A stretch of DNA of 64,000 nt from Candidatus Marinacidobacterales bacterium (GTDB lineage: Bacteria > Acidobacteriota > Vicinamibacteria > Marinacidobacterales > DATDRI01), in contig CBDCNP010000002.1 in the NCBI GenBank assembly GCA_965219415.1, positions 2,976,001 to 3,040,000 on the forward strand, read 5' to 3'. A program made the position numbers and the translations under genes. Of the stretch, positions 17,784 through 42,151 are shown in pieces. The notes beneath the pieces are model-generated. The model had not been told where the DNA came from, made no database searches, and worked only from the letters and a program-made list of their open reading frames with translations. Numbering within the stretch: the first letter of the stretch is position 1; every line of letters starts with the position of its first letter.

Positions 17784-18983
17784 GGTGCTTCCGCAATTAA
17801 GTGTTGGCAGCCAGCCCCTAACCGGTCTGCGTGCTAGAGTTTGAACCAGAATTCCGAAGACACAGTTCTCTCATCGTCAGGGCCGAGCCAAAGTGAAAAA
17901 TCGCAGATGTCTCAATCTCGCATGTCCGTTGCGGGGCAAAGTCAGTTCCGGAAACATCGTTCGCCACGGATTCTACCGAACCAGGTCCGGGAAACGCCGT
18001 CGATACCGGTGCGGCGAGTGCGGAAAGACGTTCTCCTCGACGAAAGGCACGCCCTACTACCGTCTCCAACATCGAAGAGCTACTTTCGATGGGGTCATCG
18101 CTCTCAGAGTCGAGGGTGTCAGCATTTCCTCGATTTCCCGGATCAAAGGGATTGCCTGGAACACCGTCGCCCGTTGGCTCGAGAAGGCAGCCCAAGTGTG
18201 TCATCGATTCAATCACAGAAGGATCGCTGGCTTCGCTGCCGAAGAGCTTCAAGCCGACGAGATTCGCACGTTCGCGGGCAACAAGAAGACACCGAGTTGG
18301 GTCTTCGTTACAATCGAAGTCTGGTCTCGGCTCTGGCCATCGACGGTGACGGGAAGGCGAAGCTACCGGAACACTCACGCTCTGTTTCGCGACCTTTCGA
18401 GACGGATGAATTTCGAGCGTCTTCCCTTGATCGTTACGGATGGATTCGAATTCTACCAGAAGGTCATCCGTCGCTTCTTCGGGCCAGCGTGTCTCTACGG
18501 CCAGGTCCTAAAAACGCGCAGGAACGATCGCATCATCAAGGTCGAACGGAGAGTGCTGCACGGAGCCGCGTGGCGATTCGAAGACGCGCTCAATAACTCC
18601 GAGGACTCTTCGACATTGAACACGTCGTTCATCGAGCGGTTGAATCTGACCATCCGGCAAAGCTCGGCATACCTTTCGAGACGAACGCTTTCCCACGCTC
18701 GCTCGACGGAGAGGCTCGATGAACACCTGGAGTTGCTCCGTTGCTATTACAACTTCGTCCGACCGCACGGAGCTCTGAAGTTCGGACGTGAGATCCGAAC
18801 TCCGGCTATGCAGGCTGGTCTGACGACGCGACGGCTCACCTTTCGAGACATCTTCTTGGCGATGACGATTCCTTTGTGGTCGCGGATCGAGGTTTTCGTG
18901 CTCAGTAGGGCGCGCAACCCGCTCTCTTCCGCACCTGTACCACTGCCCGCAGCCGCGTAGCAACACTTGATGGCGGAAGCACC
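17784..18983 (+). mobile_element. IS1-family element, 1200 bp, copy 1
   Basis: TIRs GGTGCTTCCGC(AATT/CATC)AAGTGTTG; interrupts a CRISPR spacer; no TSD seen. Confidence 0.9.
17893..18960 (+). CDS. IS1-family transposase (Zn ribbon-HTH-DDE)
   Basis: C..C..RYRCGECGKTF, LQADEI, IVTDGF, NTSFIERLNLTIR, YNFVRPH, RTPAM. Confidence 0.9.
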   Translation: MKNRRCLNLACPLRGKVSSGNIVRHGFYRTRSGKRRRYRCGECGKTFSSTKGTPYYRLQHRRATFDGVIALRVEGVSISSISRIKGIAWNTVARWLEKAAQVCHRFNHRRIAGFAAEELQADEIRTFAGNKKTPSWVFVTIEVWSRLWPSTVTGRRSYRNTHALFRDLSRRMNFERLPLIVTDGFEFYQKVIRRFFGPACLYGQVLKTRRNDRIIKVERRVLHGAAWRFEDALNNSEDSSTLNTSFIERLNLTIRQSSAYLSRRTLSHARSTERLDEHLELLRCYYNFVRPHGALKFGREIRTPAMQAGLTTRRLTFRDIFLAMTIPLWSRIEVFVLSRARNPLSSAPVPLPAAA

Positions 18984-22500: not shown

Positions 22501-23700
22501 GGTGCTTCCGCCATCAAGTGTTGCTACGCGGCTGCGGGCAGTGGTACAGGTGCGGAAGAGACCGGGTTGCGCGCCCTACTGAGCACGAAAACCTCGATCC
22601 GCGACCACAAAGGAATCGTCGTCGCCAAGAAGATGTCTCGAAAGGTGAGCCGTCGCGTCGTCAGACCAGCCTGCATAGCCGGAGTTCGGATCTCACGTCC
22701 GAACTTCAGAGCTCCGTGCGGTCGGACGAAGTTGTAATAGCAACGGAGCAACTCCAGGTGCTCATCGAGCCTCTCCGTCGAGCGAGCGTGGGAAAGCGTT
22801 CGTCTCGAAAGGTATGCCGAGCTTTGCCGGATGGTCAGATTCAACCGCTCGATGAACGAGGTGTTCAATGTCGAAGAGTCCTCGGAGTTATTGAGCGCGT
22901 CTTCGAATCGCCACGCGGCTCCGTGCAGCGCTCTCCGTTCGACCTTGATGATGCGATCGTTCCTGCGCGTCTTGAGGACCTGGCCGTAGAGACACGCTGG
23001 ACCGAAGAAGCGACGGATGACCTTCTGGTAGAATTCGAATCCATCCGTGACGATCAAGGGAAGACGCTCGAAATTCATCCGTCTCGAAAGGTCGCGAAAC
23101 AGAGCGTGAGTGTTCCGGTAGCTTCGCCTTCCCGTCACCGTCGATGGCCAGAGCCGAGACCAGACTTCGATTGTAACGAAGACCCAATTCGGCGTCTTCT
23201 TGTTGCCCGCGAACGTGCGAATCTCGTCGGCTTGAAGCTCTTCGGCAGCGAAGCCAGCGATCCTTCTGTGATTGAATCGACGACACACTTGAGCTGCCTT
23301 CTCGAGCCAGCGGGCGACGGTGTTCCAGGCAATCCCTTCGACCCGGGAAATCGAGGAAATGCTGACACCCTCGACTCTGAGAGCGATGACCCCATCGAAA
23401 GTAGCTCTTCGATGTTGGAGACGGTAGTAGGGCGTGCCTTTCGTCGAGGAGAACGTCTTTCCGCACTCGCCGCACCGGTATCGACGGCGTTTTCCGGACC
23501 TGGTTCGGTAGAATCCGTGGCTAACGATGTTTCCGGAACTGACTTTGCCCCGCAACGGACATGCGAGATTGAGACATCTGCGATTCTTCACTTTGGCTCG
23601 GCCCTGACGATGAGAGAACTGTGTCTTCGGAATTCTGGTTCAAACTCTAGCACGCAGACCGGTTAGGGGCTGGCCGCCAACACTTAATTGCGGAAGCACC
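22501..23700 (-). mobile_element. IS1-family element, 1200 bp, copy 2 (inverted)
   Basis: Near-identical to 17784-18983; transposase at 22524-23591. Confidence 0.9.
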
Positions 23701-27752: not shown

Positions 27753-28187
27753 TCATCCGCCGATGCCGTCGGCAGAGAGGTAGGCGTCGAGCGAGTGGAG
27801 CTCCTGCGACAGGTCGTCGACCATGTTCCTCAACAAGTGTCGCGTCGATAGCATACCGGCGACGTTCCCCCCGCGGTCGATGATGGGAAGATGGCGAATG
27901 TGGTTGCTCGTCATCATCGCGAGAGCCTCGCGATGATGCATGTTGCTGGCAGCAACGATGGGCGGCGAGGTCATCACGTCGCGGATTGGGGTCTCATCCA
28001 AGTGGCTTCCTTTGGCCACCACACGCTTCAGGAGATCGCTAGCGGTGAAGATACCCTTCGCCGATTGGTTCTCCACCACCACGACTGCGCCGGCACCGCA
28101 GTCAACCATTGTTTCCACGGCGTGTCGGACCGTGGACTCGGTTCCGATCGTCACCGCCGGAGTCCGGGCGATCTTGAGCAGCCTCAT
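27753..28187 (-). CDS. CBS domain pair protein
   Basis: GAVVVV...GIFT..DL...VMT..P...M..NHIRHLPII...GMLS. Confidence 0.9.
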   Translation of the reverse strand: MRLLKIARTPAVTIGTESTVRHAVETMVDCGAGAVVVVENQSAKGIFTASDLLKRVVAKGSHLDETPIRDVMTSPPIVAASNMHHREALAMMTSNHIRHLPIIDRGGNVAGMLSTRHLLRNMVDDLSQELHSLDAYLSADGIGG

Positions 28188-28568
28188 AAACTGGCCTCCT
28201 TGTCTCGCACCTTCGGCGTGGCGTTGGACGCGATCCCCGTACGGGCGTTCAGTTAGGCAACCGAGAAATCAGGTATAGCGTGCCTCCTCACGAGTAGGGG
28301 GAGGGCGACTTGTAGGGCGTAAATCTTGTACACCAATAAGCGGTCGGATTTCAACTCCAAGTCACATCGCAGCGCTGCTACTTCGACGTGAAAACATCTG
28401 GGTGTGGGCTCCGAGATATTGGGTCTGGGAACTAGCTCAGGGTTCGGGTTCCGGTTGCATTCTGGTGGGTGCTTCCGCCATCAAGTGATGGAATGGACTC
28501 CTCCACTGACATAGACGGCATCGATGTGCCAAAGTCAGTCGAATACGCATCGAAAAGGAGGAGTCCGA

Positions 28569-29601
28569 ATGAAAGATACAACGATCGCTGTGGATCTTGC
28601 AAAGAACGTCTTCGAGATTGCCATCTCGGGAGAAGCGGGGAAGGTGTCCAAGCGACTCCGTGTGAGTCGACCCAAATTGGTGTCGTTCTTTGCCAAACAG
28701 AGCGCTGCCACCGTGCTTCTCGAAGCCTGCGGCTCGGCTCACTTCTGGGCAAGGACGTTCCGAAGGTTGGGACACGACGTCGTCCTGCTCCCACCTCACC
28801 TCGTGAGGCCGTATCGACGCGGGAGCAAGAACGACCGCGCCGACACGAAGGCGTTGCTCGAGGCCTACAGGAACGAGGAGCTTCTTCCCGTACCCATCAA
28901 GTCCGTGCAGCAGCACACCCTCGCTGCGCTCCATCGCCTGCGCTCAGGATGGCTCTCCACACGGACCGCACGCATCAATGCCGTACGCGGGCTCCTGCGC
29001 GAACTCGGATTCATCATCCCAAAGGGCGCTCACTTCGTCGTGCCCGCCCTCTTCGAACTCGTCGAAGACGCTGATTCTGATTTGCCCGACGTGCTCCGTT
29101 CGCATCTCCGTGATGCCTGCTCCGAGATTCGAGAACTCAAGGACAAGTGCGCTAGCATCGAGCACGAGCTCAAGGCGCTCACCAAGCAGGCTTCCTGAAG
29201 TCCAACGACTTCTCGCCATTCCCGGCATCGGACTTCTGACCGCGACCGCCATCGTGGGCTTCGTCGGCGATCTTCGCCGCTTCCCATCGGGGCGCCGCTT
29301 CTCGAGCTACCTCGGCCTAGTTCCCAAGGAAAACTCCAGTGGCGACATTCGCCGCCTCGGACGCATCACCAAGCGTGGCGACTCCTACCTCCGTATGCTC
29401 CTCACCCAGGGCGGGCGCGCCGTGCTCCGCGCGGCGAACGTCAGCAAGAGCCCGCCCGACAAGCTCCGCGCCTGGGCTCGGAAGGTCCACCGCTCGCGGG
29501 GACACAACAAGGCCGTGATTGCTGTCGCCAACAAACTCGCCCGGATCGTCTGGGCCGTCTCCACCCGCGAGAGTGAATTCCAGTCGCCGGTGGCCGCTTA
29601 G
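28569..29601 (+). pseudogene. IS110 transposase with a +1 frameshift near 29190
   Basis: IAVDLAKNVF, LEACG, KNDRADT (DEDD), IPGIG, YLGLVP..SSG, ITKRGD, VANKLARI; one extra G in CAGGCTT. Confidence 0.9.
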
Positions 29602-29664
29602 ACTTAGAGGCTCCACTTTCGTGTTTTCCTTTTTCCCTTCCAAAAGAGGCTGCGACGATACCCA

Positions 29665-29830
29665 TCCAACTGATGGCGTACCGGTCGGACCGGCGCGGGG
29701 TCAAGCCAATAGCAACACTGGCCCTAAGAGGCCGTTCAAAGTGATTGGCTCCTCGCGCGCGGATTTTCCATCATGGCCCGGAGCACCCAAGACGCTCCTC
29801 ACTGAGGCCGAAGATACGTTTGCAGTCTGA
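29665..29830 (+). ncRNA. Predicted bridge/seek RNA of the IS1111-type element
   Basis: Stem AGCCAAT/ATTGGCT enclosing AGCAACACT and TCAAAGTG (target matches); a second loop with TTCCATCAT and AGATACG (donor matches); boundaries approximate. Confidence 0.75.
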
Positions 29831-30157
29831 CCCACTCGTCACGACGCGATGGATGCGCAGCTTCGATGGAAGATTTATTAAGAAAGGGGCTTGACTAGAA
29901 AGAAAGGGGCTTGACTAGAGGAGTCCAGATATGTTGCTACGCCGTGTTTGAATGCTAGTGTCAGCTGGCCTTCCTGTGTCGGCGAACGCCACTAATAAGG
30001 ATGTCAGCGTGCACACGAAGGTATCTCTGAACGTCAGGCACCGTGTGTTCAGCCCAGCCCGTATCGCCGAAAGAACTGCGTCTCTCGAAATCAGGCTCAA
30101 ACTCTAGCACACGAGCGGGTTACGCGGCAGATACCAACACTTGATGGCGGAAGCACC

Positions 30158-30304
30158 TCCTGTGCCAAAACTCGGCCCTTTAGAAATAGACCACAAATCA
30201 GCAGCTTAGACGCCCTTGGAATCCGCGCAGAATCCAGGGTATTTCGCGCCGCAGGGCTGACTTCCGACACCCATGGGCTGGCGGATGAATAAATAGAAGG
30301 CACA
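30158..30304 (+). mobile_element. ~147-bp mini-element copy (first 2 nt clipped by the IS1 MITE)
   Basis: Near-identical to 1294-1440. Confidence 0.85.
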
Positions 30305-30367
30305 CCTCTACACCCACATCGAGCCGCTTTTGGCCGGTGATGTTCCATTCTTGTGAATAGCCACGAA

Positions 30368-30510
30368 CTAGGTCAGCATCTCCTCGTCGCTGTAATCCCA
30401 GGTGCGAAGTGTTCCCGGCTCGAGACGGATCATCGCAAAGTCGATTTCCTTCATACCATCGGCATAATCGTTTCCTCGAGCCTCACCGAGATAGCGGATG
30501 GCAAGGCGTC
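30368..30510 (-). pseudogene. Tandem partial duplicate of the PPOX 3' end
   Basis: Repeats the 3' end of the PPOX gene with copy-1 alleles. Confidence 0.85.
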
Positions 30511-30545
30511 GCCGGTGATCTTCCATTCTTGTGAATAGCCACGAA

Positions 30546-30980
30546 CTAGGTCAGCATCTTCTCGTCGCTGTAATCCCAGGTGCGAAGTGTTCCCGGCTCG
30601 AGACGGATCATCGCAAAGTCGATTTCCTTCATAGCGTCGGCATAATCGTTTCCTCGAGCCTCACCGAGATAGCGGATGGCAAGGCGCCGTAGGACGTCGA
30701 GGCCGTCAGTCGGGTGCGAAACCTTAGCCTCTCCTCGTATTTCAATGCCCCGATACGGCGGCTGGCTGTCGGCTACTACGACGGATGCCATGGGGTTATG
30801 GTCGAGGTGCCTGGTCTTCACATCCTTTGCGAAGGTCATCACCGTGAACCCGCCGTCCCTGAACTCGTGCCAGACCGGTGACAACAACGAGTGGCCGTTT
30901 TGCATGTGGGTCGCGAGAATCGCCACGGTCGAGCCGGTAAGCAGGTCGCCTAGCTCTTCGGGTTTGAGGTTCTTGCGCAT
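30546..30980 (-). CDS. PPOX-like protein, copy 2
   Basis: 144 aa; 5 amino-acid substitutions relative to 1504-1938. Confidence 0.85.
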   Translation of the reverse strand: MRKNLKPEELGDLLTGSTVAILATHMQNGHSLLSPVWHEFRDGGFTVMTFAKDVKTRHLDHNPMASVVVADSQPPYRGIEIRGEAKVSHPTDGLDVLRRLAIRYLGEARGNDYADAMKEIDFAMIRLEPGTLRTWDYSDEKMLT

Positions 30981-41906: not shown

Positions 41907-42151
41907 GGTGCTTCCGCCATCAAGTGTTGCTACGCCGTGTTTGAATGCTAGTGTCAGCTGGCCTGCCTGTGTCGGCGAACGCCACTAATAAGGATGTTGG
42001 CGTGCACACGAAGGCGTCTCTGAACGTCAGGCACCGTGTGGTCAGCCCAGCCCGCATCGCCGAAAGAACTGCGTCTCTCGAAATCGGGCCCCAAACTCTA
42101 GCACACGAGCGGGTTACGCGGCAGCCACCAACACTTGATGGCGGAAACACC
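41907..42151 (+). mobile_element. Intact ~245-bp IS1-family MITE
   Basis: TIRs GGTG(C/T)TTCCGCCATCAAGTGTTG; the interior resembles both ends of the 1200-bp IS1 element. Confidence 0.88.

Follow-up and report, generated by a model that had tools for sequence, protein, structure and literature searches.

IS4321 and IS5075 target Tn21's terminal inverted repeats, and IS1383 may lie within repeats belonging to IS1384. The host of IS4321 and IS5075, with which we compare the present element by description, is a Tn3-type transposon and not an IS1-like insertion sequence (IS) or a MITE. The available portion of PMC11187229 reports that seekRNAs have been experimentally shown for ISKpn4 and ISPst6 and predicted for ISPa25, and that the RNA was found by experiment to be essential and reprogrammable in other IS1111 members. 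The same portion gives, as traits of the IS1111 family, extensions of 7 bp on the left and 3 bp on the right and, within the C-terminal domain, the motif GL-P----S(t)G. In the accessible part of PMC11208160, IS1111 bridge RNAs are placed in the right end with their donor nucleotides in a multi-loop, and for the IS621 bridge RNA the text notes rG:dT pairs and guide-DNA pairing that is discontiguous. A further IS110-family system, ISPpu9/MITEPpu9, carries a downstream RNA module in extra or tandem copies; it targets REP, and its Ssr9 is dispensable for transposition (PMC12288879, from the part of the article available).

ISPa25, ISKpn4, and ISPst6 target integron attC sites in Proteobacteria, whereas the element analyzed here is found in Acidobacteriota MAGs, at the tip of the repeats that bound an IS1-like IS and its MITEs, and the loops of the attC-targeting IS1111 group differ from those of its predicted RNA. 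A literature search that covered few subscription journals found no IS1111-type element targeting IS1-family ends; the supplements of PMC11187229 and PMC11208160 might include a related element.

A frameshifted IS1111-family element

The window, which is the whole 64,000-nucleotide stretch analyzed, contains an element identified by its sequence as a frameshifted copy of the IS1111 family (IS110 superfamily, DEDD recombinase; entered in ISfinder under IS110). The uncultured bacterium that carries it is assigned by GTDB to the order that also holds MAGs titled Candidatus Marinacidobacterales (Acidobacteriota). Coordinates of all features are given in Table 1. The limits of this element are common to about 30 copies in the genome at 99% identity, and it differs from one of them, copy L002, by eight substitutions and one extra base. 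A 1-bp insertion (an extra G) at about position 29189 shifts the reading frame of the transposase gene and is private to the window copy, which is dead for this reason; 29 other genome copies have an intact transposase.

A profile search with the two ORF pieces matched PF01548 (E 1.9e-12) and PF02371 (E 2e-25), in keeping with the DEDD/RuvC-like N-terminal and PF02371 C-terminal domains of the family. The intact transposase, taken from the ATG of copy L002, has 343 aa, within the 330-350 aa expected for IS1111. It scored 302.9 bits against NF033542, "IS110 family RNA-guided transposase" (cutoff 140), and its translation contains the GL-P----SG motif (YLGLVPKENSSGD). Among named proteins, the best match is a transposase of the ISPa25 family, 45.9% identical across 99% of the query, and ISPa25 has the same left end, ATGGAAT-GGACTCC, and the same right subterminal repeat as the window element.

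The subterminal repeats are 12 bp long with one mismatch (about 11-13 bp in the IS1111 family), and an exact-match scan returned a 10-nt exact inverted match of the left repeat to 29918-29927. The left terminal extension measures 6-7 nt and the right one 4-5 nt plus TG; at 5 nt plus TG, the latter is longer than the 3 bp stated for the family in the available portion of PMC11187229. Non-coding DNA totals 332 bp downstream of the transposase gene versus 81 bp upstream. A 20-bp unit near the right end is present one, two, or three times among the genome copies, with element lengths of 1425, 1445, and 1465. Some full copies are followed by partial, right-end-only copies, reminiscent of ISPpu9, but the module repeated in the present family includes the predicted bridge RNA itself. 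A sigma-70 scan of 28400-30200 found no promoter, and the two terminator-like sites in that interval were both on the minus strand and at chance level.

Table 1. Features of the IS1111-family element, its predicted RNA, and its host elements in the window
Feature	Position	Strand	Remarks
IS1111-family insertion sequence	28488-29933	+	1446 bp, one TG counted at the right end
Left subterminal inverted repeat TGGACTCCTCCA	28494-28505	+	6-nt extension ATGGAA before the repeat
Right subterminal inverted repeat TAGAGGAGTCCA	29916-29927	+	followed by GATA, then the TG core
Transposase gene, broken	28569-29601	+	pieces 28569-29198 and about 29190-29601
Non-coding right end	29602-29933	+	332 bp, predicted location of bridge/seek RNA
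20-bp tandem duplication AAGAAAGGGGCTTGACTAGA, two units	29880-29919	+	-35-like TTGACT in each unit
Bridge RNA core (predicted)	29675-29835	+	covered by model R1; contains target arm and donor arm
RNA closing stem	about 29683-29691 with 29824-29832	+	folding and comparison of relatives
Second RNA stem	29693-29700 with 29751-29758	+	folding and comparison of relatives
Target-binding arm (predicted)	29704-29750	+	outer stem AGCCAAU/AUUGGCU, inner GGCC/GGCC, internal loop between
5' target guide UAGCAACACU (predicted)	29710-29719	+	pairs with AG-TG-TTGCTA of the top strand: left flank (2 nt), core, right flank
3' target guide GUUCAAAGUG (predicted)	29734-29743	+	sense of left flank and core TCAAG-TG, one extra A
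5' donor guide UUCCAUCAU (predicted)	29766-29774	+	complement of A-TG-ATGGAA: core and left end of the element
3' donor guide AGAUACG (predicted)	29812-29818	+	sense of right end AGATA-TG, 6/7
Outer 20 bp of host MITE terminal inverted repeat (left half of target)	28468-28487	+	core TG 28486-28487
Rest of host MITE	29934-30157	+	TTGCTAC, 29934-29940, is the split repeat's inner 7 bp; other terminal repeat 30131-30157
Empty MITE, same family	41907-42151	+	intact target 41907-41933
Empty 1200-bp IS1-like host IS	17784-18983	+	355-aa transposase; exact target is the right repeat 18957-18983(-)
Second empty 1.2-kb host IS	22501-23700	-	exact target 22501-22527

Host elements

An IS1-like 1.2-kb IS and its roughly 245-bp MITEs provide the target site, namely the tip of their terminal inverted repeat. 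The window copy is hosted by a MITE and not by a full IS: with the insertion removed, this host is 244 bp long and identical at 232 positions to the empty 245-bp MITE at 41907-42151. In the IS1-like IS at 17784-18983, the left repeat is a non-target variant. Both the 1200-bp IS and the 245-bp MITEs end in terminal repeats of 23-27 bp, which fits the ~20-30 bp of the IS1 family. The host transposase matched NF033558 with E 6.6e-24 but at 84.9 bits, below the cutoff of 100; it also fell short with the IS1/IS1595 zinc domain (20 bits, below 28) and Pfam DDE_Tnp_IS1 (20-22 bits, below 24.1). Plasmid genes that carry the annotation "IS1 family transposase" are 26-30% identical to it. The target-site duplication of IS1 is 8-9 bp; no direct repeat flanks any of the three host copies examined in the window. 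A reading of the same DNA made from its letters only (the sequence-only reading) had described the element as a parasite of IS1-family ends. The part concerning the RNA and the site was borne out, but the "IS1 family" label comes from sub-threshold profiles and about 30% identity.

Insertion site and its occupancy

The element was said to split its target at a TG core, and the junctions indeed read CATCAAG-TG / IS / TTGCTAC. Sharing between both junctions and the empty site is limited to TG, with a single orientation and no further duplication. DNA upstream of 28468 varies between copies, so the repeat tip begins at that position. Empty sites had been reported at 22501 and 41907, and uninterrupted 27-mers were found at 22501-22527(+) and 41907-41933(+), with a third at 18957-18983(-). 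Near-matches with two to three mismatches start at 482, 30131(-), and 55625, and no match to the 27-mer appeared in 100 shuffles of the sequence.

Insertion of other copies at unrelated sequences had been named as the observation that would speak against a fixed target. Instead, the same 20-bp tip precedes 33/33 genome copies having a left end, and the right junction of the 30 two-ended copies is TTGCTA in 28, TTGGCGG in one, and, in one, an incomplete copy of the right end of the element itself. Occupied tips number 33 out of 511 in the genome. Occupancy was 28/115 for TTGCTA-type tips and 2/393 for other variants (p = 1.5e-17, the copies being not fully independent). When the last 10 nt of the tip were exact, 27/101 TTGCTA tips and 1/37 TTGG.. 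tips were occupied (Fisher p = 0.0014). By host class (1.2-kb IS, MITE, and others), occupancy was 15/63, 11/27, and 2/6. Selectivity among repeat variants tracks the guide-paired positions R4-R6, and the single insertion in a TTGGCGG tip (1/30) has three guide mismatches. The recognized sequence is about 12-14 nt (TCAAG-TG-TTGCT) and not the whole repeat.

Structure of the predicted bridge RNA

Comparison of relatives indicated that the non-coding right end forms a conserved, covarying three-way RNA fold. The stems named by the sequence-only reading (AGCCAAT 29704-29710 with ATTGGCT 29744-29750, and GGCC 29720-29723 with 29730-29733) are all correctly placed, and the folding that it had proposed as a check predicts them in the MFE structure (z = -3.6 and -2.3). 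Changes in the target arm among relatives are G-U-compatible or compensatory. Over the conserved structure, 91.3% of cells are paired, versus 30-46% with the partners slid, and eight pairs change on both sides, which was reached by 0/500 shuffles. A small hairpin and an AUC/GAU pairing within the donor strands, both from RNAalifold, were excluded from the structure tested.

A model built from the window element and its relatives (R1) matched ISPa25's right end along the whole model (80.4 bits, E 2e-17). At E <= 1, R1 found nothing in five distant IS110-family elements of 24-32% identity (L110, L113, L114, L115, and L119), or in L047, which is cut at a contig end. An Rfam search of 28000-30500 returned no family, the best hit being an unrelated miRNA model (E 0.11).

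To judge from its sequence, the window RNA works like a bridge RNA but has the IS1111 layout and not that of IS621. It is located in the right end, its strand order is reversed relative to the IS621 bridge RNA, and its donor strands flank a multi-loop, where IS621 has a simple internal loop. The strands are of comparable length: in IS621, which belongs to the IS110 group, the 5' strand has 8-9 nt versus 9-10 in the window RNA, and the 3' strand 4-7 versus 5-7 (PMC11208160, in the accessible part).

Predicted guide strands

TAGCAACACT at 29710-29719 had been presented as the exact reverse complement of the target, and this was confirmed over 10 nt. It is the longest antisense match to the target in the whole 1446-bp element; by simple arithmetic, about 0.06 such 10-mers are expected by chance between 1446 nt and a 30-nt site on both strands. 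The 3' target guide would pair with the bottom strand and is weaker than the 5' guide. The segment described as approximating TCAAGTG (TCAAAGTG, 29736-29743) is at the position given but matches imperfectly, since UCAAAGUG needs a one-base bulge and has 5 contiguous nt. The two target guides overlap at AGTG, and the complement of the top strand lies 5' of the complement of the bottom strand, an arrangement that, in sequence, corresponds to the seekRNA order of IS1111.

On the donor side, TTCCATCAT (29766-29774), noted earlier as complementary to the predicted circle junction, is the longest antisense match spanning that junction (9 nt), and the only longer antisense matches are the element's own subterminal repeats. 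AGATACG was likewise rightly located at 29812-29818 and agrees with the right end AGATATG at 6/7, with C where the right end has T.

Two other matches were rejected as guides. The sense 9-mer CCATCAAGT (28894-28902) lies within the coding region and was taken as chance, and TGATGGCG (29671-29678), antisense to the outer target, is unchanged in the variant element L036 despite its different target. The guide-target matches in the window alone are only suggestive; they are convincing because they are located in conserved loops and because relatives were compared.

Loops and flanks in related elements

Covariation of the loops with target sites across homologs, suggested earlier as a check, was observed in four further elements, whose stems are the same and whose loops match their own flanks. 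Over relatives at 46-94% identity, the loops differ and the flanks differ correspondingly. The longest exact runs of the 5' loop on its own target were 10, 8, 9, 8, and 6. Runs on the targets of other elements were 3-4, except for 6-7 between two elements with similar loops; for the window 5' guide, the run was 10 on its own target versus 3-4 on others. In a relative at 61% identity (G008), the 5' loop complements A-CG-CAGTTG at 9/9. A DNA search with its flank found paralogous empty sites, which the 3' loop GUCCGGACG matches at 9/9 (L126) and 8/9 (L122).

The left end and the donor guide change jointly, from ATGGAA/UUCCAU in the window element to ATGGGA/UCCCAU in G008 and ATGAGA/UCUCAU in L088. 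For the 3' donor guide, agreement with the right end is complete in the relatives at 94% identity (AGAUAUG), as it is in the 61% relative, which has AGATA-CG in guide and right end alike. The reprogrammed variant L036 is a single copy; its match depends on two G-T wobbles, the fit of its 3' strand is poor, and its pairing register relative to the crossover is one off from the window type. The G026 relative (L046, 54% identity) has the same stems, and no loop-flank match was found for this element, whose left end was not located. Three relatives have TG at the left junction and CG at the right, and in this subgroup the first core base may not need to match between donor and target.

Other genomes and RNA libraries

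In four other MAGs, the same tip was found at 41/47 copies with a recognizable left end. The remaining six belong to a single MAG and end in AGTG, with TCAAGTG / TTGCT at two of these sites. Copies outside the repeat retain a short guide-matched motif. Copies at 94-98% protein identity are present in a different family of the order, and none was found in seven genomes from the genus and family to which the window belongs. Part of the element was found in 20 sequencing runs, three of them recorded as RNA. Contigs of four runs (the three recorded as RNA and one guessed to be RNA) held only short element pieces at 90-99% likeness, with no circle junction and no defined RNA ends, and they say nothing on expression because DNA may be present in such libraries.

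Discussion

We assign a probability of roughly 0.9 to RNA-guided insertion of this IS family at TCAAG-TG-TTGCTA in IS1-like and MITE repeats. The mechanism proposed is based on published work on relatives together with the sequence presented here. An intact copy would excise as a circle in which right end, TG, and left end are joined, and transcription of the right-end non-coding region would yield a bridge/seek RNA roughly 150 nt long. The target arm would pair with both strands of TCAAG-TG-TTGCTA, the two strands around the donor arm would pair with the circle junction, and the recombinase would exchange strands at TG. As recognition falls 20 bp in from the tip of the terminal inverted repeat of an abundant IS1-like IS and its MITEs, the element accumulates in those repeats in one orientation. 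We infer transcription, circle formation, and a causal role of the RNA in specificity by analogy and from sequence. The earlier description of a natural RNA-programmed parasite appears apt, given the sites, the conservation of the RNA, and the covariation of loops with flanks.

The uniform site could also reflect one ancestral insertion multiplied by composite transposition through the IS1-like transposase, homologous recombination, or segmental duplication instead of targeted insertion. The left flank ..gaaatagacc is common to three copies and ..cgatgcagag to two, and composite mobilization is conceivable in that, after insertion, tip and left end together retain a match to the other terminal repeat (93% over 27 nt). 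However, each of two near-identical IS haplotypes is found in hosts whose interiors are unrelated (1.2-kb IS, 245-bp MITE, a third class, and the TTGGCGG tip), every host class has empty members (47, 12, and 4 in the commonest subtypes), insertion in four other MAGs is at this site as well, and copies outside the repeat keep the guide-matched motif. Some of the copies may have multiplied with their host element or in larger duplications, but multiplication in place of targeting is very unlikely.

Recognition of the repeat by the transposase protein, alone or via the host transposase, with incidental RNA complementarity, is less probable still. Such an account can point to the chance expectation of the 10-nt match (only about 0.06 in a whole-element scan), to the chance-level 9-mer in the coding region, and to the RNA of the window element being a prediction from sequence. 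It does not fit the four additional elements in which the same stems carry different loops matching their own flanks, the selectivity among repeat variants that follows R4-R6, or the experiments on other IS1111 members in the available portion of PMC11187229. We give the least credence of all to a right-end structure that serves the transposase as a regulatory RNA or terminator, like the Ssr9 module of ISPpu9. The structure does come directly after the stop codon, and the right-end-only partial tandem copies recall the separable ssr9 module (PMC12288879, part available), but the plus strand of 28400-30200 lacks a terminator-like site, the loops track target and donor sequences across relatives, and the RNA is homologous to the right-end region of ISPa25, a predicted seekRNA in the available portion of PMC11187229.

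With RNA-guided insertion as the preferred reading, this genome amounts to an experiment of nature on how specific an RNA-guided recombinase is: it has hundreds of related sites whose occupancy follows guide complementarity, with off-target insertions in a sister genome and at least one naturally reprogrammed variant. The 29 intact recombinase genes and a compact RNA make the family a candidate bridge recombinase, and because intact copies are at hand, the repaired transposase proposed earlier for a recombination assay is needless. The mechanism is already known, and our understanding of it is unchanged; what is extended is the known habit of IS1111 elements of using the end-repeats of other elements, which here takes in the IS1-like ISs and MITEs of uncultured marine Acidobacteriota.

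After insertion the host repeat keeps its outer 20 bp, and the left end of the element, on sequence comparison, restores a look-alike of the non-target repeat variant: tip plus left end and the other terminal repeat of the MITE form the 27-nt inverted match mentioned above. With the outer 20 bp kept and a look-alike repeat end, the IS1-like transposase might still move the composite. If so, composite movement would carry the RNA-guided element to new replicons, and could help explain why 94-98% copies are present in a different family, while the seven genomes from the window's genus and family yielded none. We regard it as doubtful that the IS is a hyperparasite exploiting or controlling its IS1-like hosts, more than a passenger. 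Alternatively to composite movement, the split right repeat may disable host IS copies.

Insertion site and host elements

The sequence at 28300-30100 has a left junction of ...GGTGCTTCCGCCATCAAG-TG followed by ATGGAATGGACTCC... and, ~1.45 kb downstream, a right junction of ...GGAGTCCAGATA-TG and then TTGCTAC. Exact copies of the uninterrupted 27-mer lie at three places in the window (see table), and three more places have it with 2-3 mismatches; no shuffle of the window contained a match. These exact 27-mers bear out the claim of a sequence-only reading that a repeat is split at a TG core and is found empty at 22501 and 41907. Together with both junctions, they place the element at 28488-29933, with one TG counted. 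Compared with a sister copy, the window copy has 8 substitutions and an additional G at ~29189; the resulting frameshift is therefore private to it.

Features of the element, its hosts, and its predicted guide strands in the window
Feature	Position	Remarks
Host IS, 1,200 bp	17784-18983	
Host IS, 1,200 bp	22501-23700	
MITE holding the window copy	28468-28487 and 29934-30157	
Exact uninterrupted 27-mer (empty site)	18957-18983 (-), 22501-22527 (+), 41907-41933 (+)	
Split coding region, first piece	28569-29198	match to PF01548 (DEDD_Tnp_IS110)
Split coding region, second frame	end 29601	match to PF02371
5' target strand	29710-29719	perfect 10-nt complement of AG-TG-TTGCTA
3' target strand	29734-29743	sense of TCAAG-TG with one extra A; 5 contiguous nt
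5' donor strand	29766-29774	UUCCAUCAU; complementary to A-TG-ATGGAA
3' donor strand	29812-29818	AGAUACG versus AGATA-TG

Two kinds of host were found. The right repeat of the 1,200-bp host IS is the exact target and its left repeat a variant (CAATTAAGTG-TTGG..). The host stop codon lies within the target and the insertion point just past it, so that insertion leaves the host gene intact and divides the right repeat at 20 bp from its tip. The second kind are MITEs of ~245 bp; with the IS removed, the MITE of the window copy has 232 positions in common with the empty 245-bp MITE at 41907-42151. The 355-aa host IS protein matched the NCBIfam IS1 family profile below its curated cutoff (E 6.6e-24), was also below cutoff against Pfam, and was 26-30% identical to plasmid genes carrying an IS1 family transposase annotation, which weakly suggests an IS1-like protein. 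Target-site duplications are expected for an IS1-family element, and none was present at three host elements examined (both 1,200-bp copies and the MITE at 28468-30157). The repeat proposed as target was confirmed; its attribution to the IS1 family is tentative. Adjoining the far end of the MITE, two nearly identical short ORFs (start MNSHELGQHLLVAVIPGAK..., 178 bp apart, 30353-30692) indicate a local tandem duplication.

Predicted guide RNA in the right end

The fold of the 332-bp right end was better than that of shuffled sequences (z = -3.6 for 29600-29933 and z = -2.3 for 29682-29834). Seven elements were aligned, the window element and relatives with 98%, 94%, 94% (L036), 61%, 54%, and 46% protein identity, the first three of these relatives coming from sister MAGs. 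They have a common architecture of a closing stem, a GC-rich stem, a target arm (AGCCRAU/AUUGGCU, internal loop, GGCC/GGCC), and a donor arm (UGGCC/GGCCG), in agreement with the stems claimed around 29704-29750. The specified structure had 91.3% paired cells, versus 30-46% with partners slid, and 8 pairs changed on both sides, a number reached by 0 of 500 shuffles. The alignment has only seven members, several of which are closely related, and the conservation therefore lends support without being conclusive. A covariance model of the alignment matched end to end (80.4 bits, E 2e-17) directly downstream of an ISPa25-family transposase gene on a Pseudomonas plasmid; that transposase is the best named protein relative (45.9%). 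According to an excerpt of PMC11187229, a seekRNA is predicted for ISPa25, and those of ISKpn4 and ISPst6 have been purified.

The 5' target strand, correctly described as an exact reverse complement, is the longest antisense match to the site in the whole element. The 3' target strand does approximate TCAAGTG, with the pairing interrupted by the extra A. The donor loop UUCCAUCAU is complementary to the predicted circle junction, as claimed. The match of AGATACG to the right end AGATATG carries one mismatch in the window type, which is gone in the 94% relatives, where the strand reads AGAUAUG. The strand order agrees with that described for IS1111 seekRNAs in the PMC11187229 excerpt (top-strand complement first, with overlap in the target) and is the reverse of that of IS621, for which part of PMC11208160 provides a precedent for a long 5' and a short 3' strand, discontiguous pairing, and rG:dT pairs. 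Two other matches to the target were set aside. One, the sense 9-mer CCATCAAGT (28894-28902), lies in the coding region, outside the loops, and was taken as a chance match; the other, the antisense 8-mer TGATGGCG (29671-29678) just 5' of the RNA, is probably not a guide because L036 has the identical 8-mer but a different target.

Covariation of loops and flanks

In most of the homologs compared, the loops changed with the target sites. L036, present as one copy in a sister MAG and 90.6% identical at the DNA level, keeps the stems and donor strands and has loops AACAAUCGU and UUUGCAGCG, with flanks ..CTCCAG-TG and ATTGTTA... Pairing of its 5' strand with G-TG-ATTGTT comprises 7 Watson-Crick and 2 G-T pairs; its 3' strand fits poorly, and the pairing register relative to the crossover is shifted by one from that of the window type. 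In the 61% relative, of which there are two copies, the loops are CAACUGCGU, a 9/9 complement of A-CG-CAGTTG at its own right junction, and GUCCGGACG, equal to empty paralogous sites at 9/9 (L126) and 8/9 (L122) positions. In the 46% relative (L088), the 5' loop is complementary to A-CG-ATCCTT at its own right junction, and the 3' loop contains GUCUUUG, matching its own left flank GTCTT-TG. Five elements were compared in a cross-table. The longest exact runs of the 5' loop with its own target were 10, 8, 9, 8, and 6, versus 3-4 with the targets of other elements; the similar loops of L036 and ISPa25 were the exception. The 3' loop discriminated less well (5, 3, 4, 7, and 5 versus 2-4), and no loop-flank match was found for the 54% relative in G026. 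On the donor side, guides changed together with the left end (ATGGAA/UUCCAU, ATGGGA/UCCCAU, and ATGAGA/UCUCAU) and the right end (AGATA-CG/AGAUACG and ATACA-CG/AUACACG).

In genome G034, TTGCTGCGATCGTT, a two-mismatch relative of the target predicted from the loops of L036, is repeated dozens of times, and the predicted pattern had 115 matches with ≤2 mismatches versus 55 for a reversed control; these repeats may be the real target family of the variant. The junction dinucleotide also varies. In L044/L045 (the 61% relative, G008), L088, and L120 (ISPa25), it is TG on the left and CG on the right, and the G008 empty paralogous sites have CG. The window type has TG at both junctions, yet its 3' donor strand reads CG. 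The difference could stem from how a heteroduplex was resolved, from a subsequent mutation, or from a first core base that need not match.

Distribution and independence of copies

The genome of the window (8.05 Mb, 3 contigs) contains 30 full or nearly full copies with 99% identity, plus fragments; 29 copies encode an uninterrupted 343-aa transposase. A scan with the repeat's outer 20-mer (≤4 mismatches) found 511 tips, 33 of them adjoined by the left end of the element; all left ends adjoin a tip, and insertion at unrelated sequences, named beforehand as a refuting outcome, was not seen. The right end is also present in 30 of these 33 copies and is followed by TTGCTA in 28, by TTGGCGG in one, and by a partial right end of the same element in one.

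Shared descent of occupied sites was weighed against separate insertion. DNA outside the tip varies between copies, except in two small groups with a common flank. The 30 copies comprise two almost identical haplotypes and an older lineage, which includes the window copy, and each haplotype occurs in host classes that have unrelated interiors and many empty members. From this distribution we put the number of separate insertions at ten or more; independence of the copies is substantial, though not full. One common flank (..gaaatagacc) is found at three occupied sites (G000:C3:4353084, 5113835, and 5599451), with the 1.2-kb IS behind two and a MITE behind one, a possible sign of recombination between copies of the IS or of a site where host elements prefer to land.

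A full copy followed by a partial one (gene end and RNA region only) occurs at G000:C3:3315125-3316853 and at L033, L035, and L040 (= L058, L075, and L065). The G000 junction, AAAAG-AG-GCTGCGAC inside the right end, resembles the target AAG-TG-TTGCTAC, and the arrangement looks like self-insertion into a pseudo-target. The partial right-end copies are comparable to the separable RNA module of ISPpu9.

Selectivity among repeat variants

Most tips are variants, which makes the genome a natural competition experiment. With three truncated copies left out and copies not fully independent, 27/101 TTGCTA tips with the exact last 10 nt were occupied versus 1/37 TTGG.. tips (Fisher p = 0.0014); over all tips, the counts were 28/115 for the TTGCTA type versus 2/393 for others (p = 1.5e-17). 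None of the 298 tips with a variant left half and TTGG.. was occupied. The host repeats form a very large family with several variants, the commonest being CCATTAAGTG-TTGGTGA (n = 92).

Occurrence in other genomes

A protein search of 60 related genomes gave matches at E ≤ 1e-30 in seven. None was found in the seven genomes searched from the window's own genus and family, and another family of the order had copies with 93-98% protein identity, a distribution that suggests recent horizontal spread. In a scan of species-representative genomes, close relatives were confined to MAGs titled Candidatus Marinacidobacterales. Sixty loci were examined; excluding L036 (= L066) and L088, 47 had a recognizable left end, preceded in 41 by the same repeat tip. 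The six exceptions, from one MAG, all end in AGTG, and two read TCAAGTG then TTGCT. This suggests that recognition is of the ~12-nt stretch under both guides and not of the repeat itself; the six sites are possibly degenerate repeats. In contigs from two marine-sediment libraries, a left end closely related to the element's (28487) is joined to a different upstream sequence, a hint that the environment holds additional variants with other targets.

Published work already covers the mechanism, the family, the RNA location and layout, and targeting of other transposons' end-repeats. The observation behind the proposed RNA-programmed targeting of IS1-like ends is real, and the interpretation holds with the qualifications given. 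The element comes with an unusually informative natural data set.

Right-end repeat and candidate junction promoter

A 20-bp unit, AAGAAAGGGGCTTGACTAGA (29880-29919), carries a -35-like TTGACT and is present once in two 1,425-bp copies, twice in most copies, and three times in one 1,465-bp copy. A TTGAC immediately 5' of the right subterminal repeat is kept in the window element and four relatives, including ISPa25. In the predicted circle, TTGAC would lie 18 nt before TGGAAT, which is preceded by TG (TG-A-TGGAAT of the left end); read in this way, the two motifs would form a candidate promoter across the circle joint.
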